This document shows, piece by piece, positions 2,376 to 35,667 of a stretch of DNA of 64,000 bases. Position 1 is the first letter of the stretch. Each line of letters starts with the position of its first letter. A program made the position numbers and the translations under genes. This DNA comes from a virus (taxonomy: Duplodnaviria > Caudoviricetes): IMG/VR virus record IMGVR_UViG_3300029288_004944, positions 32,001-96,000 of that record; one strand, 5' to 3'. The notes beneath the pieces are model-generated. The model was not told the origin of the DNA. It ran no database searches and saw only the letters and a list, made by a program, of their open reading frames with translations.

Positions 2376-2729
2376 TTATTCTCTTATTCCAACAACCTTA
2401 ACTAAATGAACATTTTCAATCTTTCTCCTGTGTGCCTCTCTTTCTATTTGACCTATCAAGGACTGCAATACCCAATCCGGATTATGCGATTGAACTTGCT
2501 CATTATAAACTTGTGCCCATTGAACAAACACACGAGATGCAGATGCATCTAATACCCTCTGCCCTATTCGTATTGTCATTGTATCATAATCTTCATTCTT
2601 AACTAATTCATATTTACGCACTAATTCCTCATATCTCTGACCGGGAGTTTGATGTTTTGTTTTTATATCAGCATCACTAATTTCATCATTTTGTCCCCAC
2701 CTCTTTATCATAATATCTATTAAGCCCAT
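2376..2729 (-). CDS. R10-W11 N-tagged protein, body family alpha
   Basis: MGLIDIMIKRWG; body contains WAQVY...LIGQI. Confidence 0.8.
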   Translation of the reverse strand: MGLIDIMIKRWGQNDEISDADIKTKHQTPGQRYEELVRKYELVKNEDYDTMTIRIGQRVLDASASRVFVQWAQVYNEQVQSHNPDWVLQSLIGQIEREAHRRKIENVHLVKVVGIRE

Positions 2730-2745
2730 GGCTGCTCCGATACAC

Positions 2746-3153
2746 TCATCTTACTCCCTTATAAGTAAATAAACCACCACTAATTTCCCTTCCCTCTCCC
2801 TCGCATTGTTTCCCTGCTCTTTCTACAATCTGATCTATCAAGTATCTATATGATTTCGCATTCCCCCACATTTTTATATAGTCATAGGAAACAAGTGCCC
2901 ATATTGGCCTTACTCTTTCATCTTTCAATAGACCACTCATTACCTTACTGTTAAAATCCTCTACTATATTAATAGATAAATTATCAACACTTAAAGAAAA
3001 CATTAAATTATACTTTGAAACTAAATTAAACAACTCGTTGGCTTCTGTGCGATTAAACTTTAAGTCTCTTTTAAAGAGCCTATAAAGTTCCTGCCTTTCA
3101 TCTTCTTTTACAGGATCTCTCCATCTTTCTATCATCACATCTATTATATTCAT
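2746..3153 (-). CDS. R10-W11 N-tagged protein, body family alpha
   Basis: MNIIDVMIERWR; body contains WALVSY...LIDQI. Confidence 0.8.
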   Translation of the reverse strand: MNIIDVMIERWRDPVKEDERQELYRLFKRDLKFNRTEANELFNLVSKYNLMFSLSVDNLSINIVEDFNSKVMSGLLKDERVRPIWALVSYDYIKMWGNAKSYRYLIDQIVERAGKQCEGEGREISGGLFTYKGVR

Positions 3154-3160
3154 TTTATCC

Positions 3161-3349
3161 TTATGTTAAACCACTTGTTATATGTAATCCATTATACCAA
3201 CGACTCCCCTTGACAGATATTATTTCTTCATTTCCATCTCTTGTTTCAATTGTGCGTTGCAGATACGTTGCATAGCATTCATATTCATTCTTTTTTTCAT
3301 CTATTACATCCGGTCCCCACCGTCTTATCACATCACATATTAAACTCAT
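3161..3349 (-). CDS. R10-W11 N-tagged small protein
   Basis: MSLICDVIRRWGPD; bridges the RW and RLGPD tag subtypes. Confidence 0.75.
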   Translation of the reverse strand: MSLICDVIRRWGPDVIDEKKNEYECYATYLQRTIETRDGNEEIISVKGSRWYNGLHITSGLT

Positions 3350-3802
3350 TTATTTCTCCCCACTATCCTTCTTCTCCTGTTCTTGTCTTAACCAAGGTCT
3401 GTCATAACACTCTCCCACCACCTGTGTTGCATACTCATTGCATATACGTTCTTCAAAATCCTTTTCGTGGGCATCATCTCCTGACAGATCTTCTTCTTTC
3501 GGAGATCCACTTACTCTCCATAAGATCATTCTTAAACCCGATCTATATACATTATAATGCGCTATTTCGTGGTACGTAATCCAAAGAACTGAACTATCTA
3601 TTTCACTTTCATCATTAAATATATAAATACATTCATCCTGAAAATATGTAAAACCCCTTGCTTTTAATATATCTTTATCATCTCCTGTCCAACCCTTAGC
3701 ACGCATAAACCCTACTTGATCGGACTTAGATATAAACGTCAAATATAACCCAAACGATTTTGCTACTTTCCTGCATTCGGCCATACCTTGTTCTGTTATC
3801 AT
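3350..3802 (-). CDS. HExxH zinc metallopeptidase-like protein (ImmA/IrrE-like)
   Basis: YHEIAH followed by downstream EERICNEYA. Confidence 0.6.
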   Translation of the reverse strand: MITEQGMAECRKVAKSFGLYLTFISKSDQVGFMRAKGWTGDDKDILKARGFTYFQDECIYIFNDESEIDSSVLWITYHEIAHYNVYRSGLRMILWRVSGSPKEEDLSGDDAHEKDFEERICNEYATQVVGECYDRPWLRQEQEKKDSGEK

Positions 3803-3820
3803 TTATTACATCTCCTTTCA

Positions 3821-4339
3821 CTATCTCGGACCAGGATACGATGTCATTCCATCACTATCATTTTCTTCATCTTCACCCGATGATCTAATATTATCTATCC
3901 ACCTACCTCTCTGTGCTGCTTCAAGAACTAATCTATCATTGCCCACTATTACTTCTTCATCTCTTCTTTGAGCGGCTCTTTGAACACTCATTTGAGCCTT
4001 TAGTGCCTTTTCTTCGCACAATCTTTCTATTCTTGCCTCATCACTCATTTGTCCTATAAGATATTCTTCTATCTTATCAAACAAATATTGATGCACATTC
4101 TCTACACCAATCTCTTTGATCTCATCATATGAAACCCTAATCATTGCAGACCAAACAGTAAGTTCACATTTAAAAATTGTTATTTCCTTAATTTCAGACT
4201 GGTCAGCATACATTAAATGATTTTCTCTCATAAGATTATATAACTCAATAGGTATTAAACCAACATATCCTGACCATTGATTCTTTACCCTACTATTGTC
4301 ATTTCCCCATCTTCTGATTACATTATCTATTACACTCAT
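3821..4339 (-). CDS. R10-W11 N-tagged protein, body family alpha
   Basis: Start re-called at 4339 (MSVIDNVIRRWG, GGGGG RBS); body contains IRVSY...LFDKI. Confidence 0.8.
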   Translation of the reverse strand: MSVIDNVIRRWGNDNSRVKNQWSGYVGLIPIELYNLMRENHLMYADQSEIKEITIFKCELTVWSAMIRVSYDEIKEIGVENVHQYLFDKIEEYLIGQMSDEARIERLCEEKALKAQMSVQRAAQRRDEEVIVGNDRLVLEAAQRGRWIDNIRSSGEDEENDSDGMTSYPGPR

Positions 4340-4343
4340 TTTA

Positions 4344-4688
4344 TTACTGTCCCCCACCTATTTCTTTTATTCTACTCCAATATACATCTTGTGGCAAAGA
4401 ACTCTGCATTCTTCTTATAATCTGACCTAAAAGTATTCCAAATATATCTTCATCAGTATATCCCATTTTGTCTTTATAACTAACATCTGCCCAACAATTA
4501 CGAAGTGAATCATCACTTTTATCCACTAAAAGTATTCTACCTGATTGTTTATCATCTACAAGTCTAAGATTGTTTATTGCTATTGCTTTCTCTAATGATG
4601 CCTCAAATGAAGAGATAGGACAATTTGACTTGTCCTTTATCATTTCTTTATCTTTCCACCTATTAATCATTATGTCTATTATACTCAT
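4344..4688 (-). CDS. R10-W11 N-tagged protein, body family alpha
   Basis: MSIIDIMINRWK; body contains WADVSY...LLGQI. Confidence 0.8.
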   Translation of the reverse strand: MSIIDIMINRWKDKEMIKDKSNCPISSFEASLEKAIAINNLRLVDDKQSGRILLVDKSDDSLRNCWADVSYKDKMGYTDEDIFGILLGQIIRRMQSSLPQDVYWSRIKEIGGGQ

Positions 4689-4700
4689 TCTGAACTCCCC

Positions 4701-5338: not shown

Positions 5339-5405
5339 TATCTTTTCCTCCCCTCTACCTATACTTTCAGTTGGTGTCATTTTGACACCGACTCATATTC
5401 CCACC

Positions 5406-6472: not shown

Positions 6473-9400
6473 CTATTCCACCCTACCCGCCTCTACCACA
6501 ACTCCCCCATTCATGCTATAAACTTCACCTGTGTCCATATCTTTAATCTCATTTATCATTACCTTAGATCCTGGAATTAACTTTATCTCACTCTCAGGGT
6601 AAGGTATATCAGCATCCCCTGTATTCTTTTGTAATGTTTCTATCCAATCTACATTTTGTTTACTTACTTCACCTTTCACCACTACTTCCGGCCACCCCTC
6701 ATTTGATTCCCCTTTTGCATTCTCATAAACTGTGGCCTGTCCTAAATCCCATGTCCAATACACACCCATAGATGGCCAATCTTCTAATAGGAGTTCATCT
6801 TTAATACTCTTTACAAATTCTTGTACATCCTTTACTGCTAATGCTCTAAATACCGGAAAAGGATCTGTGAACCCTAAAAATCTCTTCTTAGATGCTTCAA
6901 ATGCTTCTATTGCTTCTTCGGGATAGTTCTGATAGAACTCATCCACTTCTCCACCCGGCTGATCATTGATCAGATCTTCTATTGTTATATTCTCCAAGGA
7001 TACAGATGCTTTTCTTTTCAATCCCCTATATTCGCCATACTTCTTTATAAATTCTTCTATACTATAAAACCCATCCTCACTTTGAGCAAAGGTCTCAACC
7101 AAAATCTTACGTGGTTTAAAGTTTATAATTATATCAAACCATTTCCTAAGAGTATCCACATTCTCTACCTCAACACCCATTAAATTATTCTGTTCCATTC
7201 TTACTCTTGTCCATCCTAACAATATTAATGCTTCTATCTTATTATTATACTCAGGTATTGTAATTCCATATTCTTCTTTTAACATCTCTATATTATTAAA
7301 TATCCATTCTTCGTGTTCTCCCGTAGATTCTTCTACTCCAACATTATATATCTTACCCACAGGATCAATCCAGTATGCACCCAAATTTCCTTTTGCTGCT
7401 TCTTTTAATCTCCCCTCTATCTCGAACTTCTCTATTGTCGTATCTTTCTTAGACAACTCTATCTCTTTTATCTGCCACTCTATTTCCGGTTCTTCATCCA
7501 CCAACTCCTCCGTCTCTCTTAGTTTCTTGCCTTTCTTTAAATAGGCTATCGTGATATGCGGAGTGTAATCAAAGTCATCCTTGACTTCAAACTCTTTGGC
7601 GAGATCGGAGTGAAGTTCTTTCAAATCTTGAGACTCTAATTTCAGCACAGCCACATCATATTCTTTACTGTGAGTGAAATAATCTATCTTGGCGATCTTG
7701 GCGATTAATTGGCGATTGGCCACAAGTGATTGAATATCAGATATAGAGGCAGAGTCAATACCATAGCAAAGGGTTGTGTGGGGGGATGGGGGAAATCCTC
7801 CATCCATCTCATTACTTTCTGCATCAGACAGATCTTCTTTTGGAATACTGTTTTGAACTTTCTTTATCCATTGTTTTAACTCTTTTGGTATGTCAGACGT
7901 TTGCACACTACCATGATCGTAATCTGCTCTTATTACTATCCCACCTCTTCTTATCAACACTCCCACTTTCTCGGATGTTAAATGTTCTTCATCTCCTACC
8001 GTTAATTCTAACTCTTCTTTGTTTACTATCCGATCTTTTGAAATTGAATTATCTATCACTATATCCCCACCTATTAAATCAGGGTGTGATTCTATATAAT
8101 GTTTGAATATTAGATCTGCTCTATCGTCTTCTGCCACACCCTCTTCCCCCTCACTACTTTCCCCATATGTTTCCTCTTCCGGATATAACTTATCATACTC
8201 TGCTACCGGCCACATTATCTCTATATCCACAGAATCAGGGCTATTTGAATTCATTGCCCTATATGATTTCTCACCCAACACTGTATAAACGATACCAAGG
8301 TCTGTATCCTCAGCCCTAAGCCCATTTTCCAATATACTCTTTACATTCTCTCTGCTTGTTTGGTGGTGCAGGTCCACACCATTGGGATACTTATTCTTTA
8401 ACATCTCTATGAACTGTCTTTGATACTTTCCCATATCAAGATCATATTTCTCCCCTTTAACCCTACCCCTCATACTCGCACTTATCTTACTCCCATCCTT
8501 ACCTTCTTCTTTTGTGTGATACTTCTGCACTGTGCTATATTGTTTATTCTTTAAATCCTCGGCAAGATCATATATATCACGTATAACATCATATATCTCT
8601 TCTGCTTCTTTATTTTCCTCTTCTCCTGCCTCATCATACGCCCACGATAATATCTGATCAGAACTATGCCATGTTGATATAAGTTCATCCATTGCTTGCA
8701 ATATAGCCATTGGATCAATTGCTGATTTCAATTTCTCTATTTTCTTATTTACTTTATCCCAAAACCTTCCATACTCTTTTTCTTCAAATCTTCTACTTCT
8801 TTCTAACTCTTCAGGCGATACTCCCACTCTCTCCATAAGCGATAATATAATCTCTTTTGACTTCTCTGCTACCTGTGGATCTATTTCTCCCACTATCCCC
8901 TGCCTATATAACTCTTTAATCGTTTCTATATCGGATAGAGATAGCGAAGACAATTTGTCTATTTCGCCTCTCTTATTAACCTTTAACTCTTTCCACTCCC
9001 CTACTTCCCATTGCCCCATCTCTTTCTCAGACTTTATACCCTTCCCCTTTCTTTCCCCACCACCGTTTGTTATCTCCACTCTTAATATACCGTTCTCTGC
9101 CCCGGTCCCCACCACATAATCTTCACTATCATTTAATGTTTCCCCCACTTCCTCCGATAAATAACCCTCATCATCATATTCTGTATATGTATATCCGATT
9201 ACACTCTCCCCCACAGAGGCGGCGATGGAAGGAAATCTATCTGCCATAAACTTATCTACGGCTTCATTGTGAGTAAGACCTTTATACTCCGGCTTTTGAT
9301 ATATTGCTACCCAACATGGTTCCCCCCAATACTCATAGTATATTATCTTATCGCCTGCATTGATTACAATTACCCAATCCTCTGATCGTACCAAATCCCA

Positions 9401-9880
9401 CTGCCCCACACTTACATCTTTCTCAGGGTATGCCTTTTTCTTTTTAGCCATCTCTATATAATTCTTTCTCATTGAATCAGATTCATATTGTTTACTTTCT
9501 TTCTTTATTCCTACACCTATCCCCCCACTATTACTTGCCTCTACCTTTAGCGTAGCAGGCAATAGCCTTACTCCCTTCATACCACCAAACTCTAATAGAT
9601 CGTTTGCAGTAGCCAAACTTATAGCCTTTAACCCAATAGCCATTGTATACTTATTCTCTGCTACCTTGCGAGCCCAAGACAATAGAGATATATTCTTAGT
9701 CCCCCCCAATGTTTTTATGGCCTCAGAAATTAGTTCATTGGTGTCTATATTTAAGTCAGATAAATTTATAACTAAAGTATATCCGGATTGTTTTTTCATT
9801 AGTTTTTTTACTCCAAAAAATATTATATATTTATGATTTCTCTTGTTCTTTCTAAGGTCTGAACTAATTACTTTTTGCAT
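6473..9880 (-). CDS. Multidomain polyprotein-like protein: helical module, ART-like module, 2H phosphoesterase (Acb1/T4 57B-like), YWIDPxG module, second ART-like module (likely start 9799)
   Basis: PHTTLCYG and PHITIAY (two HxT motifs, ~7410-7930); LHHQTS...SILENGL (~8020-8400); FRAL..GVYWTWD..ESEI (~6490-7000); GGAG RBS before ATG 9799. Confidence 0.85.
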   Translation of the reverse strand: MQKVISSDLRKNKRNHKYIIFFGVKKLMKKQSGYTLVINLSDLNIDTNELISEAIKTLGGTKNISLLSWARKVAENKYTMAIGLKAISLATANDLLEFGGMKGVRLLPATLKVEASNSGGIGVGIKKESKQYESDSMRKNYIEMAKKKKAYPEKDVSVGQWDLVRSEDWVIVINAGDKIIYYEYWGEPCWVAIYQKPEYKGLTHNEAVDKFMADRFPSIAASVGESVIGYTYTEYDDEGYLSEEVGETLNDSEDYVVGTGAENGILRVEITNGGGERKGKGIKSEKEMGQWEVGEWKELKVNKRGEIDKLSSLSLSDIETIKELYRQGIVGEIDPQVAEKSKEIILSLMERVGVSPEELERSRRFEEKEYGRFWDKVNKKIEKLKSAIDPMAILQAMDELISTWHSSDQILSWAYDEAGEEENKEAEEIYDVIRDIYDLAEDLKNKQYSTVQKYHTKEEGKDGSKISASMRGRVKGEKYDLDMGKYQRQFIEMLKNKYPNGVDLHHQTSRENVKSILENGLRAEDTDLGIVYTVLGEKSYRAMNSNSPDSVDIEIMWPVAEYDKLYPEEETYGESSEGEEGVAEDDRADLIFKHYIESHPDLIGGDIVIDNSISKDRIVNKEELELTVGDEEHLTSEKVGVLIRRGGIVIRADYDHGSVQTSDIPKELKQWIKKVQNSIPKEDLSDAESNEMDGGFPPSPHTTLCYGIDSASISDIQSLVANRQLIAKIAKIDYFTHSKEYDVAVLKLESQDLKELHSDLAKEFEVKDDFDYTPHITIAYLKKGKKLRETEELVDEEPEIEWQIKEIELSKKDTTIEKFEIEGRLKEAAKGNLGAYWIDPVGKIYNVGVEESTGEHEEWIFNNIEMLKEEYGITIPEYNNKIEALILLGWTRVRMEQNNLMGVEVENVDTLRKWFDIIINFKPRKILVETFAQSEDGFYSIEEFIKKYGEYRGLKRKASVSLENITIEDLINDQPGGEVDEFYQNYPEEAIEAFEASKKRFLGFTDPFPVFRALAVKDVQEFVKSIKDELLLEDWPSMGVYWTWDLGQATVYENAKGESNEGWPEVVVKGEVSKQNVDWIETLQKNTGDADIPYPESEIKLIPGSKVMINEIKDMDTGEVYSMNGGVVVEAGRVE

Positions 9881-10079: not shown

Positions 10080-10454
10080 CTACTCATATATCTCCACTAC
10101 CTCACTCTTACCCTTCCATTGTCCTATCCAATAGTCATCAAGATCTATCTTTACAAAATTATCATACACAAGTTCAGCCCTACCCATAACTATACAATAC
10201 TTGGAAGGCTTATCTAAAAAACCTAAGGTACCAAACCTATTAATACACACAAAACTACCACATACTAACTTAGTTGTCACTCTACTCATTGGTATCTTCT
10301 TATTGTTCTTGTCTATCTCTAATACCCAAAAAGACTTATCTGCCTTAGTAGAATGAAGATTTATAAACCTATAACCGTGTGGCGATATAAATTCTTTATC
10401 TTCTATATTCTTTCCCTCTCCCCACCTCTCTATCATTGTTTCTATTATTCCCAT
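10080..10454 (-). CDS. R10-W11 N-tagged protein, body family beta
   Basis: MGIIETMIERWG; GSFVCINRFGTL; clear paralogue of 10807..11223 (GYRF...LEIDK...YW...W.G). Confidence 0.8.
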   Translation of the reverse strand: MGIIETMIERWGEGKNIEDKEFISPHGYRFINLHSTKADKSFWVLEIDKNNKKIPMSRVTTKLVCGSFVCINRFGTLGFLDKPSKYCIVMGRAELVYDNFVKIDLDDYWIGQWKGKSEVVEIYE

Positions 10455-10472: not shown

Positions 10473-10790
10473 TTATACCTTTCCCTTATACTCAAACAAA
10501 TCTATTATTACAGCATCTGTATCACTTACAGAAACATCTATACTTTCGGCTGCTATACTTGCGATCCTTGCTTTAATTGCATAATATGGCCGAGGATCTC
10601 CTTCATAGTAAAACCCTGATCCATCAAAATAAATAAAAGCACTGTCTCCTACTCTTTTAACATCAACATCACAAAGCCTATACATTTTTCTTTCCGCATA
10701 AGGATACTCTTTTAACTTATATATCCTTATCTTTCTATCTCCTACTATATCTTTCCCCCACCTATTCACTATCGTATCTATCACACTCAT
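10473..10790 (-). CDS. R10-W11 N-tagged protein, body family beta
   Basis: Start re-called at 10790 (MSVIDTIVNRWG, GGGGGAG RBS); FIYFDGSGFYYE resembles 11256. Confidence 0.8.
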   Translation of the reverse strand: MSVIDTIVNRWGKDIVGDRKIRIYKLKEYPYAERKMYRLCDVDVKRVGDSAFIYFDGSGFYYEGDPRPYYAIKARIASIAAESIDVSVSDTDAVIIDLFEYKGKV

Positions 10791-10806: not shown

Positions 10807-11223
10807 CTACATCCACCTTTCAAAATCTCTTTGCTTATTCTTCTGTTTAAACACTTCTTCTACCACTCTTAACCCTCTCCACTTCTCTTTCCAATATTCA
10901 TTAACATCTATCCTCATACATTGCCCATTCCCATTTCTTGATATATCCTTTACTATACCTATATATGCTTTGTTTGATGTGGGCAAATTACTGGAAAAAA
11001 TCAATTGATTGCTATCACTTATAGTTATTATGTCTCCATTGCCAAGTATAAGATTTTTATCTATACATCCACTATATCCTTCTTTATCTATTTCTAAATA
11101 CCAATCGCCAGCACCTAATTGAAAACCATCACACATTCTATACACAAACCTGTATCCATTTTTACTCTTTATAGTCTTAACATCTTTTGCCCATCTCTTT
11201 ATCATAATATCTATTACATTCAT
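10807..11223 (-). CDS. R10-W11 N-tagged protein, body family beta
   Basis: MNVIDIMIKRWA; GDIITISDSNQL...YIGIV. Confidence 0.8.
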   Translation of the reverse strand: MNVIDIMIKRWAKDVKTIKSKNGYRFVYRMCDGFQLGAGDWYLEIDKEGYSGCIDKNLILGNGDIITISDSNQLIFSSNLPTSNKAYIGIVKDISRNGNGQCMRIDVNEYWKEKWRGLRVVEEVFKQKNKQRDFERWM

Positions 11224-11255: not shown

Positions 11256-11603
11256 TCATATAGCAGGATCTATTCCTACCCATTCCACAACATACATCTT
11301 GCCAAAATCTCTTGTTCCATATACTTTGACACATACACTTCCATCAGGTTCGTTTATACAATCAATAAGTCCGTGCTGACAATTATCAGGATGTTCTTCA
11401 TTCTCATAATAGAACAAACCTTTATCATCAAAATAAACACAACTACTCTTTCTTATTATAGAAAGATCTGCATTTAATACTCTATACCTTTGACAATAAT
11501 CTTCCCCTAGAATATATCCATTATATCCTTCATTGACTATTTCCACTTCTCTGTGCCCGGCATCCGGCTTCCATCTACCTATAATTACCTCTATCAAGTT
11601 CAT
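11256..11603 (-). CDS. R10-W11 N-tagged protein, body family beta
   Basis: Start re-called at 11603 (MNLIEVIIGRWK, AGGGGG RBS); CVYFDDKGLFYYE. Confidence 0.8.
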   Translation of the reverse strand: MNLIEVIIGRWKPDAGHREVEIVNEGYNGYILGEDYCQRYRVLNADLSIIRKSSCVYFDDKGLFYYENEEHPDNCQHGLIDCINEPDGSVCVKVYGTRDFGKMYVVEWVGIDPAI

Positions 11604-11871
11604 GCTCTCGTCCCCCTCTGATCCTCTCCATTGTTTGATGCCATAACACACTATTTCTCACTGCCGTTAATTGTTGCTGTAAAACTTGATTTCTTTGCAA
11701 AACATAACTTGTTTCAAGATCATACCGTGCTAATGAATTTATTGCATCCAACATAGATCCTGTTGTTATTTCACTTTTATTAGGCATTGAGATACAAGTT
11801 TCTGCTTTATCTTCCTCTACCTCTTTATTATCCTGTCCCCACCTGTGGATTATAATATCAATTACACTCAT
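11575..11871 (-). CDS. R10-W11 N-tagged protein, helical/coiled-coil body
   Basis: MSVIDIIIHRWG. Confidence 0.75.
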   Translation of the reverse strand: MSVIDIIIHRWGQDNKEVEEDKAETCISMPNKSEITTGSMLDAINSLARYDLETSYVLQRNQVLQQQLTAVRNSVLWHQTMERIRGGREHELDRGNYR

Positions 11872-12275
11872 AAATTTATCCTATAAGCACTCATTGCATC
11901 GTATGCATCCACCGAAATATCTGTAAGAGTTCCCCTCATATTACTTCCTACGCATACAACCGTACCTTTCATTAATCTTACAACATTTGTTTCTCGATCT
12001 TTTTTAGGATCTCTATACATATATATTTCATTTGTTCCTCTTGCAATCCCATCATACCCCATTTTTTCTCCGGTATCACTTACTATGCTTATATATGAAC
12101 CATCAAGTGCAAAATCCACTTCATCTCTTAGTTTGGCCTTTAATCTCTTTCCATAAAGATTATGTATAAAATATCTATCAGCCTTCTTCCCTTTTGTAAT
12201 ATAAATAGGCAAGTCTTTATTTACTCCTTTTTTCCTACTATCCCATCTTGAAAGCATTGTTTCTATAACACCCAT
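11868..12275 (-). CDS. R10-W11 N-tagged protein, body family beta
   Basis: Start re-called at 12275 (MGVIETMLSRWD, GGGGGAG RBS); GSYISIVSDTG. Confidence 0.8.
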   Translation of the reverse strand: MGVIETMLSRWDSRKKGVNKDLPIYITKGKKADRYFIHNLYGKRLKAKLRDEVDFALDGSYISIVSDTGEKMGYDGIARGTNEIYMYRDPKKDRETNVVRLMKGTVVCVGSNMRGTLTDISVDAYDAMSAYRINL

Positions 12276-12298: not shown

Positions 12299-12574
12299 CT
12301 AACTTCTCATTCTTATCGTGTTTGCATCTACTATGGATTCAACTAACCCCAACACTCTCCCACCATTATAAGAACCTACATCCGGAGAATAAACATGCCC
12401 ATTGGCATCAGCACAAACAAGACCGTTTACTTGAAAATCTCTACTATTATCCACATAAACTTCCCACAACTGTCCCTTAGGAGACATAAACACATTATTG
12501 GGAAAATCATTACAATTCTTTTTTTCCACCACATCCGGACCCAATCGTTTAATAATATCTTGTTTTATATCCAT
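12299..12574 (-). CDS. R10-L11 N-tagged protein, body family beta
   Basis: MDIKQDIIKRLGPD; NGLVCADANGHV...GRVLGLV. Confidence 0.8.
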   Translation of the reverse strand: MDIKQDIIKRLGPDVVEKKNCNDFPNNVFMSPKGQLWEVYVDNSRDFQVNGLVCADANGHVYSPDVGSYNGGRVLGLVESIVDANTIRMRS

Positions 12575-13794: not shown

Positions 13795-14217
13795 CTAATC
13801 CCCAAACTCTCTATAATCCCGGAAACCATGCATTTCCCTATCAAGTTCAGGGTTGTCGCCATCAATCTCAATACTCCCCCTAAAATCATTATCAATTGAA
13901 AAAGCAGACCTATCATCAAAATTATCATGCAATGGAATAGTTATAAATAATTGTTTTGGATTGTCAGATATACCACTAAGTGTGCCAACAACTTTACAAT
14001 CCTCAGGAAGTGTTGCCCCTATTTCATTTGCAAATAACCTACTATCCTCTGCCACACAAACAAGATCTCCTATATGCCACCCTATTATATCAATATTACT
14101 AATTCTAAATACAGCAGCCGAAATCCTGCTGAACGTATACTCATAACAACCCTTTAAATTTTTATTTACTTTAACATCAGGGCCCAATCGTTTTATAATA
14201 TCTTGCTTTATATCCAT
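13795..14217 (-). CDS. R10-L11 N-tagged protein, body family beta
   Basis: MDIKQDIIKRLGPD; GDLVCVAEDSRL...KVVGTL. Confidence 0.8.
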   Translation of the reverse strand: MDIKQDIIKRLGPDVKVNKNLKGCYEYTFSRISAAVFRISNIDIIGWHIGDLVCVAEDSRLFANEIGATLPEDCKVVGTLSGISDNPKQLFITIPLHDNFDDRSAFSIDNDFRGSIEIDGDNPELDREMHGFRDYREFGD

Positions 14218-15655: not shown

Positions 15656-16630
15656 TTATCCTATTATTTTATTTTTATGTTCTTTTTTATGACAATCTTC
15701 GCAAAGTGTTATTCCATTGTCAATATCCCATAAAGGTTTATATAGCATTGCACTTTCGTATAAATCAATCAATGGTGAATGTTTTTTAATTTTCTCCAAC
15801 AATAATGCAAACTCTTTAATATGATGTGCTTTTAAATTTCCACCTCTACTATCCCCACACTTTTGGCAGGTATAATTATCTCTTTTAAAAACATCTTGAC
15901 GCCATTGATCATATTTTAAAGAACTCCTTATTCTTTCTACTGCAGGCGTTACGCCACCTTTCCAATTAGGATGATTTGATCCCTTCATTAAATCTGATTG
16001 CTTTTTTTTGTGTTCTTCTGTCCAATGTCCGTGTATATATTTACGTTCATTGCCCCATTTATCATACCTTAGATGTAATTGCTTACAACCGCAACCACAA
16101 AAAATCATTTTAGATGAACATTCTTTACAAACAAAATTTTTATAACTAATTAATGTGCCATCATTGTCTCTACCGCAAACTGCACAATGCATATCAATAT
16201 GAGATTCTGACTGTTTACTTTTTGATTCTTCTGTATGATGTTTACCATTCCAATGATGACCATTTATATATTTACGTTCTCTACCTTGTTTACCATATTT
16301 TGAACGATATTGGCCACAATTACAAGCACAAGGAATTTGAATTGATAAACAATTATCACAAACATATTTATCCTTTCCTAATGTTCCATCGTTATCTTTG
16401 TGGCAAATTTTACAATGCAAACCAAGTTTATCATGCCCTTTCACATATTTATACTCTCTACCTCTTTTGTCATGTTTAAAATGTAATTGATTACATCCAC
16501 AGGTACACGGTATTTTAATGGATAGACAAAAATCACAAACACGCTTAATATCACACAATGTTCCATCATTGGATTTACCGCATATTTTACAATGCCTTAT
16601 TCTCATTCTTATTTTCTCCACATCCACCAA
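15656..16630 (-). CDS. HNH homing endonuclease with three Cys-rich repeats and NUMOD3 motifs (likely start 16606)
   Basis: NHPNWKGG..WRQDVFKRDNYTCQKCG..AHHIK..NGITLCEDCH; HHTEESKSKQSESH. Confidence 0.85.
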   Translation of the reverse strand: MVDVEKIRMRIRHCKICGKSNDGTLCDIKRVCDFCLSIKIPCTCGCNQLHFKHDKRGREYKYVKGHDKLGLHCKICHKDNDGTLGKDKYVCDNCLSIQIPCACNCGQYRSKYGKQGRERKYINGHHWNGKHHTEESKSKQSESHIDMHCAVCGRDNDGTLISYKNFVCKECSSKMIFCGCGCKQLHLRYDKWGNERKYIHGHWTEEHKKKQSDLMKGSNHPNWKGGVTPAVERIRSSLKYDQWRQDVFKRDNYTCQKCGDSRGGNLKAHHIKEFALLLEKIKKHSPLIDLYESAMLYKPLWDIDNGITLCEDCHKKEHKNKIIG

Positions 16631-19012: not shown

Positions 19013-20332
19013 TTAAACATTACCACCCGATGGTTTATCACTTGTCTCTCCTGACATATAAGAAGGTTGTTCTGTCGATTTATTACCCAATGTTGAATAA
19101 TCTTCCATGTTTACATCCTCCCATACTGTATCTACAACTTCGGTAACAGGATTTTTTTCGCCAGGTCCTTGATCTAAATTATCATTCTTTCCCCTATTTA
19201 GCAATTCCTCATTGATTTCTTTTATCTTCTCTACGCTTTCTTTCGTTAAGGTTCCTGCTAAAATCTTCTTTTTTGCTTCAATCAATTCATTATCGCTCAT
19301 TTGTTTTACTTGTTTCTCAAACGACGCTTCTGCTGTTATCGATCCTAAAAGATCCAATGTATACAATTTTTCTCCCGCTTTAACAAGAAACGTATCTTGA
19401 CCATAAAAAGAATGATCTTGCAACGATCTCAATAATCTCACTCTCGATACAATACTCTTTTTAAATTTATCATTGTCAAAGTTTTTAGATGCTATCCAAA
19501 CCCCCGATGAATCTTTCTCAAAAAGAACGTTATCAACAATCACCTGAGGATAATCCATTTTATCAAACATATTCGATACCACTCCGGCATTGATCAATAT
19601 ATGAGATATGTCAGAAGCAGAATCTTTATTATAACCCCTTGCCCTTAGCCCAACTACATACATAAGAGCATCCACATCTGCACTGCCGATCTTTTTCTTT
19701 TCCTTTTGATATGATTTCCAATAGTTTTTTAACTCATCTGCACCCTTACCACTGAAAAAATTATAGAAGTAATTAAACACTTCGCTGTAATCAGCATCTT
19801 TTTCTGCCACAACTAATTTCCCACTTTTTTCTTCAATATTTTCCTGTGGTTGTTCTACTTGTGCTTCATTTTGTGGCTCATTACCTCTTTCCTTGGGAGC
19901 CATTATAGATTGAATATATTCATTCAAAAGATTGTCAAAATTTTGATCTTGACCCGAATAAACATAAAAAAGCCCAAGCACTTTGTCCATCTCGCCTACG
20001 CCGGCGATCATTGCAGAACTTATGAATGAATCAATATTAATACCTGATTCCTGTTCAATTAATGCTTTATTGAATACCCTATTTGACAATGTAGGCGACT
20101 GCCTCACTTGCTCTTCGTATATCCCTTGGCCAGGCATCATCTGATCAGGGCTACCATTTTCAACAGCAGGATTTTGATTATTAATCTCAGAGCCAAAACC
20201 CGTATCGGAATTATCAGCCACAATCTTTTTTAAATTGCCAACAAAGTCGGTGTCCTGCCGTGTAGCCTGTTTCTTTACCCCTTCAATTTTTATTTCACAT
20301 TCTTTTAATAAGCCTTCAAAAAATTTAGACAT
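19013..20332 (-). CDS. Hypothetical protein, possible virion protein
   Basis: MSKFFEGLL; VKKQA and KKIVA motifs; AGGAGG RBS. Confidence 0.75.
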   Translation of the reverse strand: MSKFFEGLLKECEIKIEGVKKQATRQDTDFVGNLKKIVADNSDTGFGSEINNQNPAVENGSPDQMMPGQGIYEEQVRQSPTLSNRVFNKALIEQESGINIDSFISSAMIAGVGEMDKVLGLFYVYSGQDQNFDNLLNEYIQSIMAPKERGNEPQNEAQVEQPQENIEEKSGKLVVAEKDADYSEVFNYFYNFFSGKGADELKNYWKSYQKEKKKIGSADVDALMYVVGLRARGYNKDSASDISHILINAGVVSNMFDKMDYPQVIVDNVLFEKDSSGVWIASKNFDNDKFKKSIVSRVRLLRSLQDHSFYGQDTFLVKAGEKLYTLDLLGSITAEASFEKQVKQMSDNELIEAKKKILAGTLTKESVEKIKEINEELLNRGKNDNLDQGPGEKNPVTEVVDTVWEDVNMEDYSTLGNKSTEQPSYMSGETSDKPSGGNV

Positions 20333-28360: not shown

Positions 28361-28783
28361 TCAGGCAATTGCATCTCTATTTAGCGTCGGCATAGGTCTC
28401 ACAGATCTCTCCATTCTATCTCTCTCTGAATCCGTAGCTATTTCATTAGGAGATGAGGGTTCTGTCTGAGCAGAACTCCATATGCTATTATCAGTATTTC
28501 TTTCATTTATATTTCTATCTCTTGTCGATATTACTGCTTCAACTAAAGCATTCGTATCTCCCCATGATCTTGTTGATTTATGGAATTTTAAAAGAAATGT
28601 TAATAATTCCTGCAATTTACTCGAAAAATCCTTATCTTCATCAATCTCAACTTTCATTTTAATAATTTTTTCAATTTCTTTAAAATTTTCAGGATGTAAA
28701 AGAACTGTCAAACAAGCCAAAATTTCATCTCTTTTACTAACATCTCCACCCAACCTTTTTGCAATTTCTTTTGCTAAATCCAT
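28361..28783 (-). CDS. R10-L11 N-tagged protein, helical body
   Basis: Start re-called at 28783 (GGAGG RBS; MDLAKEIAKRLGGD). Confidence 0.7.
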   Translation of the reverse strand: MDLAKEIAKRLGGDVSKRDEILACLTVLLHPENFKEIEKIIKMKVEIDEDKDFSSKLQELLTFLLKFHKSTRSWGDTNALVEAVISTRDRNINERNTDNSIWSSAQTEPSSPNEIATDSERDRMERSVRPMPTLNRDAIA

Positions 28784-28798: not shown

Positions 28799-30154
28799 CT
28801 ATATTTCCTCAATACTCTCAATTTTTTCATCATTAAATTGTTTAAAATGTTCAAGTGCATTCCATTGTTCATTTGGGAGCAAGTGATAGCATTTAACTCT
28901 TAAACCTTTGGATATAGCAAGAGCAACTAATCCTGGCACATCCATACTTTCATTAACAGCAATTAAATCAAGAACACTCTTACTAATTATTGATATTCCT
29001 ATAGAAACTTCAGACTTATGCACAGGCTTTTCATTTATCCTAATAATATTATTATTCTCATCATGTATTATGTCACCAAAGGGAATTTTTCTGCAATATT
29101 CTTTGCAGGCTATTGTAATGTCACTATTTTGCTCACAATGTTCTTTCTCCATCTTACGAAAATTCATTGTAGTAATTATATCTCCATTCAGTAATAAAAG
29201 ATTATCAAATTCTTGATCCTGCATCAATTTAATGGGGCCCACAGTTCCAAGAGGAGAAGATTCTACAATATATTTTACACTGAGATTCTCACTCTCGCAA
29301 TAATTTTTAATAAAACTACCCTTATATCCTAATGACAATGTTAAGTCCTCAAAGCCCTGCAAACTTAAATGATCAATAAGATTGTGTAAAACAACTTTAT
29401 CATTAAAAGGGAAAAGAGGCTTTGGTAAAACATATGTAAACGGCCTTAACCGTGTACCTTTTCCACCACACAATATTAAAACTTTCATAATTCCTCCGAC
29501 TACATTTAAATCAGCAGGAATCTTTAAAAGTTGATTTATAACATTGGTTGGAACTATAATTGAATGCTTTTCACAAGACTCATTATCTATTACAATATCT
29601 CCTTCTATATATGACATTCTATGTCCATCCGTTGAAACTACCTTTAAAATATTCTTAGAAATATCAAAACAAGCACCATTCAAAACAAACCTTGAACTAT
29701 CAAGAGATATGGCATTTTTAACAAAATTAAGCATATCCAAAAATACCGGATAATTAATATTAAAAGAAACAACCCCATCTCCTTTCTTTGTAATATCAGG
29801 AAATTCTCCACTTGAAACATCCAAATAATATTCAGCATTTGGCCAACTTATTTTAACGGCACCATTAACCTTTTCCTGCTCAATCTCTATAACATTGTCA
29901 CCACAAGACAAAATAATTCTTGCAAATTCATCCGCAGGAACAATCATACTCCCGCCCTCAATAACATCTACATTATAAACAATAACTTTTGTAGATAACT
30001 CTAAATCTGATGACATCATAACAATGTCTTTTTCTTCCTGCCTAAACTCTACCAATACATTATTCATCATTGCAACTGAATTTTTACCCTTAACATTTCC
30101 TGCTACCAAAGAAACTTTTCCCGCCAAATCCGATCCTTTTACATTCGCTTTCAT
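28799..30154 (-). CDS. Truncated DNA pol III beta clamp (DnaN) fused in-frame to a sugar-phosphate nucleotidyltransferase
   Basis: SDLEL, EFPDI, SRFVLNG, VSTDGHRM, IIVP (DnaN), then MKVLILCGGKGTRLRPFTYVLPKPL with its own GGAGG RBS and ATG at 29488. Confidence 0.8.
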   Translation of the reverse strand: MKANVKGSDLAGKVSLVAGNVKGKNSVAMMNNVLVEFRQEEKDIVMMSSDLELSTKVIVYNVDVIEGGSMIVPADEFARIILSCGDNVIEIEQEKVNGAVKISWPNAEYYLDVSSGEFPDITKKGDGVVSFNINYPVFLDMLNFVKNAISLDSSRFVLNGACFDISKNILKVVSTDGHRMSYIEGDIVIDNESCEKHSIIVPTNVINQLLKIPADLNVVGGIMKVLILCGGKGTRLRPFTYVLPKPLFPFNDKVVLHNLIDHLSLQGFEDLTLSLGYKGSFIKNYCESENLSVKYIVESSPLGTVGPIKLMQDQEFDNLLLLNGDIITTMNFRKMEKEHCEQNSDITIACKEYCRKIPFGDIIHDENNNIIRINEKPVHKSEVSIGISIISKSVLDLIAVNESMDVPGLVALAISKGLRVKCYHLLPNEQWNALEHFKQFNDEKIESIEEI

Positions 30155-30174: not shown

Positions 30175-31026
30175 TTATTTATAATCTCCAAAACAAGCAC
30201 TCAAAACAGATCCAATAATACCCTTTTCATCTCCACAAACATTTTTAATTATGTCCCATTTGGTCCTAAAATATTGAAAACCATCACTAACATGTACGCC
30301 CCTTTGCGGCTCATTTAAACCTGCATCTTTATGAAAAACACTAACGTTTGCCAATGCACATTCCATACCTGCAACCCTTACCATTAAATCATAATCCTGA
30401 TCATCAACCACGCAAAAATAACCTTCATCCAGAAATCCTCTATTACATTGTATAAATTGTTTATTTTTAGCAAGATCTCTTAAATAGCCACTATATTGAT
30501 TTTCATTATTGATAATTAAGTTATTCACATAATTCAACAAGATCTCCCTATTCTTCTGAATCCAATTATAAATCTTAATAGTTGTTCCGCGTGGAATGTA
30601 TTGGCAACATCCTTGAATATATCCCATTATCATTTTATTCTGTTCATCTCTTTTTAATACACAAGCCTGACTTCCAACTGTTCCCACTCCCTCATTCATC
30701 TCTACGATCTTAATCATAGCATCTTCCCACCCAAAACTTTTAATAACAATATCTGTATCAGTTTTAAATAAATGGTTTGTTTGAGCTGCGGAAAACGCCA
30801 AATTTACTCCAGGCCCTATTCCTATATTGGAACTCAAGTTCAACACTTTAATATCTTTTGATTGAATAGATTCGAGATATTGCTTAATATCATCTCCAGC
30901 ATTGTTGTTCACAAATATGATCTCATATGGCCGAGTTGTGAATGCTTTAACACTATTCACATACTCTATCAAATTATCCAAATTTTTATGCACTACTGCT
31001 AAAATTGAAATCTTTTCATTATCCAT
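30175..31026 (-). CDS. GT2-like glycosyltransferase (family B)
   Basis: FVNNNA; KTDTDI; DDQDY; YFRTKW. Confidence 0.7.
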   Translation of the reverse strand: MDNEKISILAVVHKNLDNLIEYVNSVKAFTTRPYEIIFVNNNAGDDIKQYLESIQSKDIKVLNLSSNIGIGPGVNLAFSAAQTNHLFKTDTDIVIKSFGWEDAMIKIVEMNEGVGTVGSQACVLKRDEQNKMIMGYIQGCCQYIPRGTTIKIYNWIQKNREILLNYVNNLIINNENQYSGYLRDLAKNKQFIQCNRGFLDEGYFCVVDDQDYDLMVRVAGMECALANVSVFHKDAGLNEPQRGVHVSDGFQYFRTKWDIIKNVCGDEKGIIGSVLSACFGDYK

Positions 31027-31898
31027 TTTTTCTCCAAAAAATCATTTATCAATTGTTTGTATTTACCATTCTTTATATCGTGTTCCCAAATCACAAGACA
31101 ATCCCATCCGTATTCTTTATATTTGGCAACGATATCTTTTTCATTGAGACGATAACGATTACCTGTTCCGTTAGGATAACAAATTGGACAATCATGCCAA
31201 TAACATCCATTAACCTCTACACACTTCTTTGCTTCTATATTAGTAAGATCAGGATTCATATTTCCAACCCAAAAAGATCCATCTCCCGTGTATCGCCATT
31301 CTTTTGGTTTAATTCCTTGCAAATGATTATAAATTAATGTTTCGGGCTTATTGGGAAAAATACTATATTTTCCATCTTTACGTGCTTGAATTACACCTTG
31401 ACGATTTTTTTCTTTTGTTTCTTCCTTGTGATGTTTACCATAAAAAGGATTTTTTTCACCTTTATATGATTCTGATTGTTTTCTTTTTGATTCTTCTGTG
31501 CGATGTTTACCATAATTGTAATTTTTTTCACCTTTATGTGATTCTGAATTCTTTCTCTTATGTTCTTCTGTCTGATGTTTGCCATGCCAAAATGATTTTT
31601 TACCTTTCTGCGACTCTGAATTTTTTCTATTAGATTCTTCTGTACGAGGTTTACCATACATTGGATTTTTTTCACCTTTATGTGATTCTGATATTTTTTT
31701 TCTTGTTTCTTCTATAAAATGTCCATCTATACATTTATGCTCTTTGCCTTGTTTATCATATTTTGGCTTTAGTTGATTACAACCACAAATACAGGGGATT
31801 TGAATAGATAAACATTCTTTGCAAACACGATTAGAAGCACTCAATGTGCCATCGTTGGGTTTATGACAAGACTTAACTGCACAATGCCTTATTCTCAT
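30999..31898 (-). CDS. Homing endonuclease: Cys-rich repeat, NUMOD3 repeats, Vsr/DUF559-like nuclease
   Basis: GEKNPMYGK.RTEES repeats; PD...VEVNGCYWH...LVIWEHD. Confidence 0.8.
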   Translation of the reverse strand: MRIRHCAVKSCHKPNDGTLSASNRVCKECLSIQIPCICGCNQLKPKYDKQGKEHKCIDGHFIEETRKKISESHKGEKNPMYGKPRTEESNRKNSESQKGKKSFWHGKHQTEEHKRKNSESHKGEKNYNYGKHRTEESKRKQSESYKGEKNPFYGKHHKEETKEKNRQGVIQARKDGKYSIFPNKPETLIYNHLQGIKPKEWRYTGDGSFWVGNMNPDLTNIEAKKCVEVNGCYWHDCPICYPNGTGNRYRLNEKDIVAKYKEYGWDCLVIWEHDIKNGKYKQLINDFLEKKWIMKRFQF

Positions 31899-33848: not shown

Positions 33849-33861
33849 AATATACCTCCCC

Positions 33862-34083
33862 TTATTTTAAATTCAATTCATTTGCTTTAAATAATTTTTT
33901 CACTATTTCTTCGTTTGCCACAACTTCACTCATATCGGCTCGCCACCATATCTTTTCGCCACTTATAGTTTCTATTAAAATTTGTGGGTGATCACAATAC
34001 GCTATCATTCTTCCCACTTCATTTATTCCACCTACTCCCCACTTAATTGCAATTAATTTTCCAAAATCCTTTTCGTCTAACAT
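33862..34083 (-). CDS. Hypothetical protein
   Basis: AAGGAG RBS, directly downstream of promoter copy 3. Confidence 0.65.
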   Translation of the reverse strand: MLDEKDFGKLIAIKWGVGGINEVGRMIAYCDHPQILIETISGEKIWWRADMSEVVANEEIVKKLFKANELNLK

Positions 34084-34111
34084 TTAACCACTCCTTTATT
34101 TCAACATATCC

Positions 34112-34140
34112 ATTATAGCACATAATATGTCATTTGTCAA
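34112..34140 (-). promoter_or_regulatory. Sigma70-type promoter (repeat copy 3)
   Basis: TTGACA-aatgacatattatgtgc-TATAAT. Confidence 0.85.
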
Positions 34141-34156
34141 ATCTTTCCTATCTTTT

Positions 34157-35392
34157 CTATTTTGAATAAAAATCATTAAAGATTTTATCCCTATACATTA
34201 CAATCTCTTCTGCTGTTAAATGGCTTGTAGAAACCATTGCCCTATACTCTCCACTCCTACCTTTCATATAAGAATCATCATAAGATGTATCTCTTAATTT
34301 GATGTCATATTTATCCATATTTTCTCTTATAGTTGTCCCCGGATATGGGTAAAAAATATTGGCATCAAGACCATCCATACCTATACTCTTTGCCCTTTCA
34401 ATCCATTTCATTGTTTCAGCAATAGTCTCATGGCTTTCGCCCGGCAATCCTATTATAAAAAATGTCTTAATAATAAGCCCTGCATCTTTACACCTTTGAA
34501 TTATTTCCATATTCTTCTCAACGCTTGTCCTTTTGTTTACCATATCAAGCATTTTCTGAGATCCACTTTCACATCCAAATCCCACGTGAACACATCCTGT
34601 ATCTTTCATTATTTTAAGTTTTTCCAATGTTGTCGTGTCATCTCCACGAATCAAGCATCTGTAAATCATACCTTTCTTTAACAAATGCTCTCCTATACGT
34701 TTTACCCTGTCTTGATCCAAAGTAAACACATCATCCTGAAAAACAACTGCTCTATAACCCATATCATATAAAAGATCAATCTCTTTAATTACATTCTCCA
34801 CAGAATTTCTTCTTATCTTTCCTTTCCACATCGAACAAGAATTACAGAACGCACAATCCCACGCACATCCCCTACTTGACATAATAGATGTCGCAAGCCG
34901 ATCGCCCACATAATACTTATAACTCTTTAAATCAACAGCATTAAAATCCGGCATGGGCAAAGTTGCCATATCCTTTACATACATCCCCTCAATTATCCTA
35001 CTATATGGCTTTCGGCCCAATTCTATTTGACGAACAAGATACGACAGGGCATGCTCCCCTTCTCCCTTAACCACATAATCAAAATAATCTAAACACTCCT
35101 GCGGTCTAACCGTGGGGTGAACGCCACCGGCCACCAAAACAGACTTAGGATAGAGTTCTTTTAAACGTGTAGCGATTTTAATGGCGTAGGGGTATTGGGG
35201 GGTTGTTAAAGATAAACCATATATATCAGCCTGCTCATTAAATTCTTCATAATTATCTCCGGTCAAATGTCTCACAACCACATCATACCCGTCCTGCTTT
35301 AAAAATGCAGAAAGATACAATAACCCTAAAGGCGTATTAACTTTTTCATCCATTAAAAAAGGACTTGGTGTTTCTATTAAAATTATTTTCAT
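34157..35392 (-). CDS. Cobalamin-binding radical SAM protein (class B methyltransferase-like)
   Basis: PLGLLYL; GGVHPT; GEGE; SRGCAWDCAFC; FQDD; GCESGSQ; IGLPGES; PYPGT. Confidence 0.9.
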   Translation of the reverse strand: MKIILIETPSPFLMDEKVNTPLGLLYLSAFLKQDGYDVVVRHLTGDNYEEFNEQADIYGLSLTTPQYPYAIKIATRLKELYPKSVLVAGGVHPTVRPQECLDYFDYVVKGEGEHALSYLVRQIELGRKPYSRIIEGMYVKDMATLPMPDFNAVDLKSYKYYVGDRLATSIMSSRGCAWDCAFCNSCSMWKGKIRRNSVENVIKEIDLLYDMGYRAVVFQDDVFTLDQDRVKRIGEHLLKKGMIYRCLIRGDDTTTLEKLKIMKDTGCVHVGFGCESGSQKMLDMVNKRTSVEKNMEIIQRCKDAGLIIKTFFIIGLPGESHETIAETMKWIERAKSIGMDGLDANIFYPYPGTTIRENMDKYDIKLRDTSYDDSYMKGRSGEYRAMVSTSHLTAEEIVMYRDKIFNDFYSK

Positions 35393-35667
35393 TCATTCCT
35401 CCATCTTGGTTTTTTTATTATATCACCATTTTCATTATAAAATTCTTGTTTAATCATTTTACCGCTTTCATACCATTTACGTATCAAAATATTGCCATTG
35501 GAATAAAAACCTTCAAAAGCAGGAAGATCATTATCTCTATGATATTGACCATATTTCCACCAAAAAAGACAACCAATGTTGCCATTAGGCCAATAACCAA
35601 TATATCTTGGTTTATCTGATTGATCATCAGGCCCAAGGCGTTTTATAATATCTTGTTTTATGTCCAT
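35389..35667 (-). CDS. R10-L11 N-tagged protein with MORN-variant repeats
   Basis: MDIKQDIIKRLGPD; YWPNGN..YHRDNDLPA..FYSNGN..FYNENG. Confidence 0.75.
   Translation of the reverse strand: MDIKQDIIKRLGPDDQSDKPRYIGYWPNGNIGCLFWWKYGQYHRDNDLPAFEGFYSNGNILIRKWYESGKMIKQEFYNENGDIIKKPRWRNE

Follow-up and report, generated by a model that had tools for sequence, protein, structure and literature searches.

A conserved N-terminal peptide on small proteins with unrelated bodies in a huge phage, a candidate portable docking signal

Small genes that share an N-terminal peptide

We analysed a 64,000-nucleotide stretch of phage DNA (Duplodnaviria; Caudoviricetes), hereafter the window, which corresponds to bases 32001-96000 of the 139,457-bp IMG/VR virus record IMGVR_UViG_3300029288_004944. 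In this window, at least 15 small genes encode proteins that begin with closely similar 14-residue peptides, hereafter the tag, and continue into bodies of several unrelated kinds. Positions are prefixed w when counted in the window and g when counted in the genome. The record, with a CheckV completeness of 45%, holds about 192 genes, every one on the minus strand, at a GC content of 33% and a GC skew of about -0.4 throughout. It encodes a portal protein, which as a query found no relatives in IMG/VR, and a large terminase whose closest match is that of Bacillus phage G at 34% identity. The identical phage is also present as a 216,802-bp ENA contig, and of the approximately 77 kb of this contig that are missing from the assembly we read all but about 5 kb. 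Encoded in this ENA-only part are a head module, which includes a 993-aa protease-scaffold protein (L021:2677-5658; prohead-protease domain at its N-terminus) and a major head protein of 307 aa, as well as a tail module, a dense block of small open reading frames (ORFs), RNA-repair genes and a stand-alone ClpP.

The tag occurs in two subtypes, RW and MDIK. Two clusters of RW-type genes (w2376-4688, hereafter cluster A, and w10080-12275) stand on either side of a gene whose 1135-aa product has a 2H/Acb1-like phosphoesterase domain. A gene for a 2246-aa protein follows just downstream of the clusters, and the terminase and portal genes come further downstream. The second cluster continues with the MDIK-tagged w12574 and then, 1.2 kb upstream, w14217. 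MDIK-type genes are scattered singly and often end enzyme operons; one of them, w35667, overlaps a WbqC-like gene upstream and a B12 radical-SAM gene downstream.

The N-termini of the 24 tagged proteins found in the assembly align without any gap and give the consensus M-[GSND]-[ILVM]-[IK]-x-x-[IMV]-[ILVA]-x-R-[WL]-G-x-D, in which Arg10 is nearly invariant. Intermediate forms (MDIIQTIINRW and MDLKEEVIKRW) bridge RW and MDIK and unite them in a single motif. Acidic residues stand at position 2, 5 or 6 of the tag, its mean hydrophobicity is 0.0 and its mean hydrophobic moment is 0.52, compared with 0.31 +/- 0.17 for all N-termini of the genome, and it ends at residue 14 in a charged linker. A secretion signal peptide of the Sec, Tat or lipoprotein kind was considered and rejected: the tag does not show a basic n-region followed by a hydrophobic h-region some 10 residues long or longer.

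The initial annotation, made from the sequence alone, had listed 15 tagged starts. All of them, on the minus strand, begin with the peptides it gave (Table 1), and arginine stands at position 10 in 15/15 with no insertion or deletion. As it had also proposed, five starts need to be re-called from an upstream GTG or TTG to an internal ATG (marked in Table 1), and each of the five re-called ATGs is preceded, 7-12 nt upstream, by a GGGGGA/GGAGG-type ribosome-binding site. Only one re-called start, that of w4339, has an orthologue in the contigs of a related phage described below (L015:6202), in which no other possible start lies upstream.

We searched the complete 139,457-bp assembly, translated in six frames, with a profile of residues 1-15, a scan that the initial annotation had suggested. 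The profile found 23 ORFs at 17-30 bits and a weaker 24th (g98399), all matching at residue 1 of minus-strand ORFs; the best match to a non-member reached 11.6 bits in a non-coding frame, the assembly holds no internal copies, and reversed and shuffled decoys scored 13.1 bits at most. A 25th copy, with a GTG start and a MORN-like body, lies in the ENA-only part. The 15 genes first listed are thus retained in a set that extends well outside the interval first given for it, to 24 copies in the assembly and one beyond. In leave-one-out scoring, 20 of 23 members stay above 16 bits, w3153, w12275 and w28783 falling lower (Table 1). Overall, the weak members are w28783, w12275 and g98399, with the membership of w28783 resting on 8/14 identities to the MDIK form.

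We also compared N-termini genome-wide. Outside the tagged set, a single pair of proteins, two homologous SDR enzymes, shares a similar N-terminal 14-mer, and no further set of unrelated proteins has an N-terminus in common. Given the decoy and leave-one-out scores, and with the SDR pair as the sole other shared N-terminus, the tag is neither a product of chance nor a general habit of this genome. The dense small-ORF block of the ENA-only part contains no tag copy, and a serine-rich N-terminal tag occurs nowhere in the genome.

Independence of the tag from the bodies

Body-only BLAST sorts the tagged proteins into paralogue families plus singletons, as the initial annotation had described, with three families and at least six singletons where it had counted at least two families. 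The MORN-like repeat family has seven members in the assembly and eight with the 25th copy. The alpha/beta family, recognised by a 'VSYDxIK' motif, comprises w2729, w3153, w4339 and w4688. The beta family includes both tag subtypes, RW on w10454, w11223, w10790, w11603 and w12275 and MDIK on w12574 and w14217. The singletons are w3349, w11871, w28783, g96153, g98399 and g132900. BLAST links do not cross family boundaries except in two marginal pairs (E 0.002 and 0.04), and when profiles of the alpha/beta, all-beta and MORN-like groups are compared with hhalign, residues 1-14/17 align and nothing else does.

AlphaFold2 models of w4688 and w10454 were built from paralogue alignments. The w4688 model (m21369d9a9791) has a helix at residues 3-13 with a predicted local distance difference test score (pLDDT) below 50, a disordered segment at residues 14-25 and an a-b3-a2 body at pLDDT 80-88. 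The w10454 model (m3641b8660345) has a helix at residues 3-11, again at pLDDT below 50, a disordered linker at residues 12-27 and a six-strand beta body at pLDDT 80-90. The tag helix is accordingly modelled as detached from the body. The initial annotation had named a single shared fold, with the motif as its first helix, as the result that would speak against its proposal; the body folds differ.

Neither the tag nor the bodies have a match in Pfam, PHROGs or NCBIfam. For the bodies of the eight MORN-like carriers, the best scores of MORN_2 (PF07661) are 23.3 and 18.9 bits, both below the gathering cut-off of 29.6; their YWPNG...HRDxxLPA repeat is MORN-like by eye only, and the family profile finds no solved relative. 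Fold searches of the bodies with Foldseek and VIA-align returned only weak matches that could not be used (phage SPO1 Acb4 and dsRBD-like folds at Z ~4.7, and a generic beta fold), and an ESM Atlas search with the bodies gave nothing above chance level. An arrangement in which an SDR sugar dehydratase/epimerase gene is followed directly by a tagged MORN-like gene occurs twice (Table 1), which suggests a segmental duplication.

A word-based search with the aligned N-termini yielded three non-self proteins, on contigs L015, L016 and L017 from Joint Genome Institute (JGI) samples. These contigs represent a related phage, syntenic with the window, in which the tag is kept on orthologues. Flanking genes are 72-90% identical between the two phages, and most tagged bodies only 17-47%. 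The pair w4339 and P0020/L015:6202 shares 12/14 tag residues with bodies at 47% identity, and w3349 and L015:6676 share 13/14 tag residues with unrelated bodies, that of L015:6676 having 126 aa; for w14217 and P0010/L017:659 the tag is identical at 14/14 positions and the body is 86% identical. At L017:1470, inserted at a site that is empty in the window phage, an RW-type tag precedes a MORN-like body, whereas MORN-like bodies of the window phage carry the MDIK type only. L015:5494 places the tag on a further, cysteine-rich type of body, and an untagged MORN-like relative exists elsewhere (P0006). In the orthologue of w4688 (L015:5817-6218), AAG (Lys) replaces the ATG of the tag and the nearest starts are a GTG five codons upstream or Met7, so that this gene is either a decaying copy or a sign that the tag tolerates a short N-terminal extension. 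Taken together, the profile alignment confined to residues 1-14/17, the differing folds, the modelled detachment of the helix and the recombinations in the related phage bear out the earlier proposal that the tag has been shuffled independently of its cargo.

Selection acts on the peptide itself. For codons 2-14 of nine MDIK-type copies, the proportion of differences is 0.55 at synonymous sites (pS) and 0.05 at nonsynonymous sites (pN), and R-[WL]-G is written with codons as different as AGG TGG GGA, CGT CTT GGG and CGA TTG GGT. Because synonymous sites have diverged and R-[WL]-G is spelled by different codons, it is the peptide, and not the nucleic acid, that is conserved. The DNA upstream of the MDIK-type copies shows no conserved nucleotide motif beyond the ribosome-binding site; together with the differing R-[WL]-G codons, this rules out that codons 10-12 serve as an RNA or DNA element or as an internal Shine-Dalgarno sequence. 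The tag is hence modular, exclusively N-terminal and under purifying selection as a peptide, and it is kept across related phages while the bodies diverge or are swapped.

Beyond this lineage, IMG/VR gave no match to degenerate DNA patterns of either tag form, and the one scan of JGI metagenome contigs gave 8 matches, all attributable to chance and lacking profile support. A 16-position tag profile searched against 1.84 billion proteins returned only two internal-repeat proteins, in a search for which the tag is too short to reach significance and in which matches with E >0.001 are not listed. The initial annotation did not recognise the tag as a described motif, and with Pfam, PHROGs and NCBIfam empty and nothing significant among the 1.84 billion proteins we agree: the tag is undescribed as far as our searches reach. 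Terminal address peptides on unrelated phage proteins are, as a class, already known from T4.

A docking peptide and its possible readers

We lean towards the view that the motif is a portable docking peptide that brings all tagged proteins to one common reader. A short amphipathic helix at residues 3-11, with Arg10 and Trp/Leu11 as a hot spot and Gly12-x-Asp14 as a cap, would be joined by a flexible linker of 10-15 residues to small bodies that evolve fast and have three or more unrelated folds, and would deliver these diverse cargoes to that single reader. We infer the existence of one common receptor from this arrangement. The earlier proposal of a portable signal read from a free N-terminus stands as far as portability and independence of cargo are concerned; reading from the free N-terminus is weakened by the mixed residue 2 and by the Lys codon that replaces the start in L015:5817. 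Residue 2 is Gly or Ser in some copies and Asp or Asn in others, and Met1 is normally removed before Gly or Ser and kept before Asp or Asn.

Terminal helices of this kind are familiar from the encapsulation peptides of bacterial microcompartments (BMCs), such as those of PduP, PduD and EutC, in which an amphipathic helix of about 10-18 residues and a poorly conserved linker are found on diverse cargo. The tag has the same architecture and differs in its setting, a phage and not a metabolic organelle. No BMC shell protein (PF00936) is encoded in the 139-kb assembly, in a search that matched control genomes, and precomputed Pfam lists covering most of the ENA-only part contain no BMC domain. Leader peptides of ribosomally synthesized and post-translationally modified peptides served by one maturase for many precursors are a further likeness, with one conserved N-terminal peptide on many variable proteins per genome; here, unlike in those systems, the bodies are folded domains of 60-300 residues and have no consistent enzyme neighbour.

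Among possible readers we rank first, tentatively and by analogy, a head-loading machinery: the tag may be a signal like the capsid-targeting sequence (CTS) of T4 that loads small effectors onto the prohead core for co-injection. We place it first because the T4 CTS is the only direct phage precedent. T4 CTSs are N-terminal propeptides of 10-20 residues (PMC5694885) and the only conserved feature of diverse injected anti-defence proteins (PMC3012670, PMC5694885). As in the T4 proteins IPI, IPII, IPIII and Alt, an extreme N-terminal peptide is common to small, unrelated, fast-evolving proteins that lie partly in variable clusters (PMC3012670, PMC5694885), in our case on 25 carriers, always at residue 1 and with at least three folds behind it. 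The differences are that we see no sequence similarity to the T4 CTS and no recognisable cleavage motif after the tag, that there are about 25 carriers instead of a handful, many of them scattered in enzyme operons, and that the tagged phage is related to Bacillus phage G and not to T4. A giant phage, SPN3US, provides a second comparison, in that gp53 and gp54 share 15 identical N-terminal residues on diverged bodies, which has been interpreted as CTS-like (PMC5694885); gp53 and gp54 belong to a single fold as paralogues, and the prohead protease cleaves their propeptides of about 125 residues, whereas the tag has 14 residues and stands before different folds. The context of the RW clusters (the Acb1-like 1135-aa protein, the 2246-aa protein, terminase and portal) is compatible with injected effectors.

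Several observations weigh against a docking peptide, and some of them against head loading in particular. We found no partner protein for the tag, and everything learnt by comparison derives from a single phage lineage. Pattern and profile searches detected no tag in phage G, which by its terminase is the nearest relative in culture, and the same search recovers 24/24 copies in the tagged phage's own genome. The tag is also absent from every protein of the approximately 35-kb head/tail module and from the giant proteins adjoining the clusters. The isoelectric points of the tagged proteins range from 4.6 to 9.8, so that they are not uniformly basic as DNA-associated internal proteins would be. 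Neither a T4-type (L/I-x-E) nor any other shared cleavage-like site follows the tag; the prohead protease of this phage is the N-terminal domain of the 993-aa protein, and its cleavage specificity may differ from the L/I-x-E of T4.

Expression context weighs in the same direction. Eleven near-identical extended -10 sigma-A-type promoters (TTGACA-N17-TGnTATAAT) lie on the coding strand of the genome. One consensus promoter of this host type stands 1.5 kb upstream of cluster A, with no strong coding-strand terminator listed in between, and in two cases a sigma-A-type promoter directly follows an MDIK-type gene. The promoters and the operon-end positions suggest early or middle rather than late expression. 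A common late-promoter motif was also sought as an indicator of timing, and none appeared by k-mer counts or by eye.

Early-type promoters fit an intracellular action, and this is one of the points that favour the main alternative, in itself rather unlikely, in which ClpXP of the phage itself reads the tag, either as an N-terminal degron that shortens the life of the tagged proteins or as an SspB-like tether whose variable bodies (MORN-like repeats, small beta domains) would act as adaptors delivering host targets for degradation. A true ClpX is encoded (NCBIfam equivalog NF003745, 484 bits against a cut-off of 359), with an intact GYVG pore loop, a variant C-H-C-C zinc N-domain bearing a 4-residue insertion and, read by eye, what we take to be the LGF loop of ClpX. 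The stand-alone ClpP among the RNA-repair genes (PF00574, phrog_94) is separate from the prohead-protease domain, and two AAA+ ATPases are encoded besides ClpX. In SspB, a docking peptide, a flexible linker and a binding domain are laid out in this way, which counts for the ClpXP alternative: a short terminal peptide with a flexible linker would bring variable domains to one AAA+ protease, and the phage has both ClpX and ClpP. The SspB peptide differs from the tag in being C-terminal and not helical. Two tagged MORN-like genes lie directly upstream of ClpX and of a second AAA+ unfoldase-like gene, where about 0.4 such adjacencies are expected by chance for 24 tagged and 3 AAA+ genes; however, this adjacency was noticed after the fact. 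Phage G, moreover, has ClpP and ClpX (the neighbouring gp257/gp258) but no such tag, ClpX and ClpP of the tagged phage are about 70 kb apart and do not form one module, and the known ClpX degrons are short, unstructured and unlike the tag motif. A complex prediction that combined two copies of the zinc N-domain of phage ClpX, zinc and residues 1-40 of a tagged protein scored 0.01 against a mark of 0.32 and was counted neither way. As context, the two phage genes give the idea of a protease partner, already raised by the initial annotation, a concrete candidate. A more specific version, in which the helix docks on the divergent zinc N-domain of the phage ClpX and the hypervariable bodies (MORN-like repeats, small beta and alpha/beta domains) each capture a different host protein, such as a defence factor, for destruction by ClpXP, in the manner of F-box proteins, seems to us improbable.

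The tag might instead be an inherited piece of sequence, if one small gene multiplied and its first 14 codons acquired new bodies by recombination, leaving the helix with a generic role in expression, solubility or folding and with no common reader. All copies do belong to one phage lineage, the tagged genes are clustered or stand at operon ends like duplicated accessory genes, and the intermediate forms connect the subtypes; yet under a generic role Arg10, [WL]11, Gly12 and the hydrophobic positions 3/4/7/8 would not stay fixed across at least three folds while synonymous sites near saturation, at the pS and pN given above, and while bodies fall to 17-47% identity, and we regard simple inheritance as unlikely, somewhat more so than reading by ClpXP. 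It is also improbable that the tag is a recognition or modification handle whose Arg10/Trp11 a phage enzyme modifies, be it of the radical-SAM type or an Arg-specific ADP-ribosyltransferase, in likeness to the one-maturase peptide systems mentioned above. Arg10 is nearly invariant, one B12 and two SPASM-type radical-SAM enzymes are encoded, and w35667 overlaps the start of the B12 radical-SAM gene; against this, only 1/25 tagged genes adjoins a radical-SAM gene, and these enzymes lie in a sugar-biosynthesis island where a sugar substrate is more likely. Least probable in our view is self-association, in which helices that pair with one another or dock on a small hub would gather the different tagged proteins into hetero-oligomers. 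The heptad-like spacing of hydrophobic residues at 3/4, 7/8 and 11 and the raised hydrophobic moment would suit such an assembly, but eleven residues make a very short coiled coil, and an invariant Arg-Trp/Leu-Gly cap would be more typical of a groove-binding peptide.

If the docking peptide is indeed an address label, one 14-residue peptide assigns about 8% of this huge phage's genes to one functional class and points to its diversifying effector set, most likely acting on the host or its defences. It would then also be a minimal transferable handle, suited to tag-GFP fusions and peptide pull-downs and, if CTS-like, to cargo loading. Its practical value is limited for now, as the phage is uncultivated and the tag is confined to one lineage.

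Coordinates and neighbouring features

Table 1. The 15 tagged genes first listed and other features mentioned in the text; unprefixed coordinates are window positions.
Feature	Coordinates	Strand	Description
w2729	2376..2729	-	117 aa; RW-type MGLIDIMIKRWGQN; alpha/beta 'VSYDxIK' family; leave-one-out 22.3 bits
w3153	2746..3153	-	135 aa; RW-type; alpha/beta family; leave-one-out 12.9 bits, borderline; orthologue L015:7383
w3349	3161..3349	-	62 aa; RW-type MSLICDVIRRWGPD; singleton body
w4339	3821..4339	-	172 aa from re-called ATG; alpha/beta family; orthologue P0020/L015:6202
w4688	4344..4688	-	114 aa; alpha/beta family; modelled
w10454	10080..10454	-	124 aa; RW-type; all-beta family; modelled
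w10790	10473..10790	-	105 aa from re-called ATG; beta family
w11223	10807..11223	-	138 aa; beta family; paralogue of w10454
w11603	11256..11603	-	115 aa from re-called ATG; beta family
w11871	11575..11871	-	98 aa; RW-type; singleton body, helical-looking by eye
w12275	11868..12275	-	135 aa from re-called ATG; weaker tag MGVIETMLSRWDSR; beta family; leave-one-out 7.0 bits
w12574	12299..12574	-	91 aa; MDIK-type MDIKQDIIKRLGPD; beta-family body
w14217	13795..14217	-	140 aa; MDIK-type; beta-family body; orthologue P0010/L017:659
w28783	28361..28783	-	probable member, weakest; 140 aa from re-called ATG; MDLAKEIAKRLGGD; singleton body; leave-one-out 0.7 bits
w35667	35389..35667	-	92 aa; MDIK-type; MORN-like repeat body
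ClpX	L003:7121-8329 = genome 102121-103329, just outside the window	-	NF003745
ClpP	L027:2938-3525		PF00574, phrog_94
SDR gene and tagged MORN-like gene	genome 103511-104800; L025:2610-3822		pair occurring twice
HEIAH protein	3350-3802	-	150 aa, untagged
1135-aa protein	6473-9880	-	2H/Acb1-like phosphoesterase domain
Sugar island	21581-63782		sugar-biosynthesis and glycosyltransferase genes
DnaN/nucleotidyltransferase fusion	28799-30154	-	451 aa
NUMOD3/HNH-like genes	15656-16630, 30999-31898	-	at least 5 more copies in the genome
Sigma-A-type promoters	6213, 19005, 34140, 60898 (first base of -35 hexamer)	-	seven more outside the window
Second-pattern proteins	16609-18081, 19013-20332	-	M-x-x-F-[FL]-x-x-[IL]-[KL]-[DE]
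Second-pattern protein	genome 14503-15627		M-x-x-F-[FL]-x-x-[IL]-[KL]-[DE]
Proteins with [AS]S[LV]NK[KV][AS]	genome 9952-12867, 14503-15627, 16927-19557, 24620-26596		four large proteins

Near the RW clusters, the 2H phosphoesterase domain of the 1135-aa protein also matches the anti-CBASS Acb1 family PF23474 (E = 7.5e-9). Compared with the related phage, the C-terminal half of this protein is 72% identical and the N-terminal part is much more diverged. Inside cluster A lies an untagged 150-aa protein with a HEIAH (HExxH-like) motif, which has no family match and no counterpart in the corresponding cluster of the related phage.

The sugar-biosynthesis and glycosyltransferase island is very large and unusual for a phage. 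It contains several GT2 genes, a DegT aminotransferase, SDR enzymes, WbqC-like genes and the B12 and SPASM radical-SAM enzymes. A 451-aa fusion joins the N-terminal and central domains of a DnaN sliding clamp, without its C-terminal domain, to a sugar-1-phosphate nucleotidyltransferase, and the weakly tagged w28783 follows this gene without a gap.

Genes of a NUMOD3/HNH homing-endonuclease-like family are scattered between unrelated genes and share an N-terminal zinc-finger motif, HCxxCxxxNDGT. Several of the sigma-A-type promoters directly precede such genes, as if they were parts of mobile cassettes. The promoter sequences form two subtypes, with conservation that extends far past the hexamers.

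The motif [AS]S[LV]NK[KV][AS] occurs in four large proteins, one of them an AAA+ ATPase. We considered it as a processing site for the tag; it is absent from the tagged, protease-scaffold and capsid proteins and says nothing either way. A second N-terminal pattern, M-x-x-F-[FL]-x-x-[IL]-[KL]-[DE], is present in three larger proteins (MGKFLDNMKDLL, MSKFFEGLLKE and MEDFLGEIKEF) and may be another shared leader.

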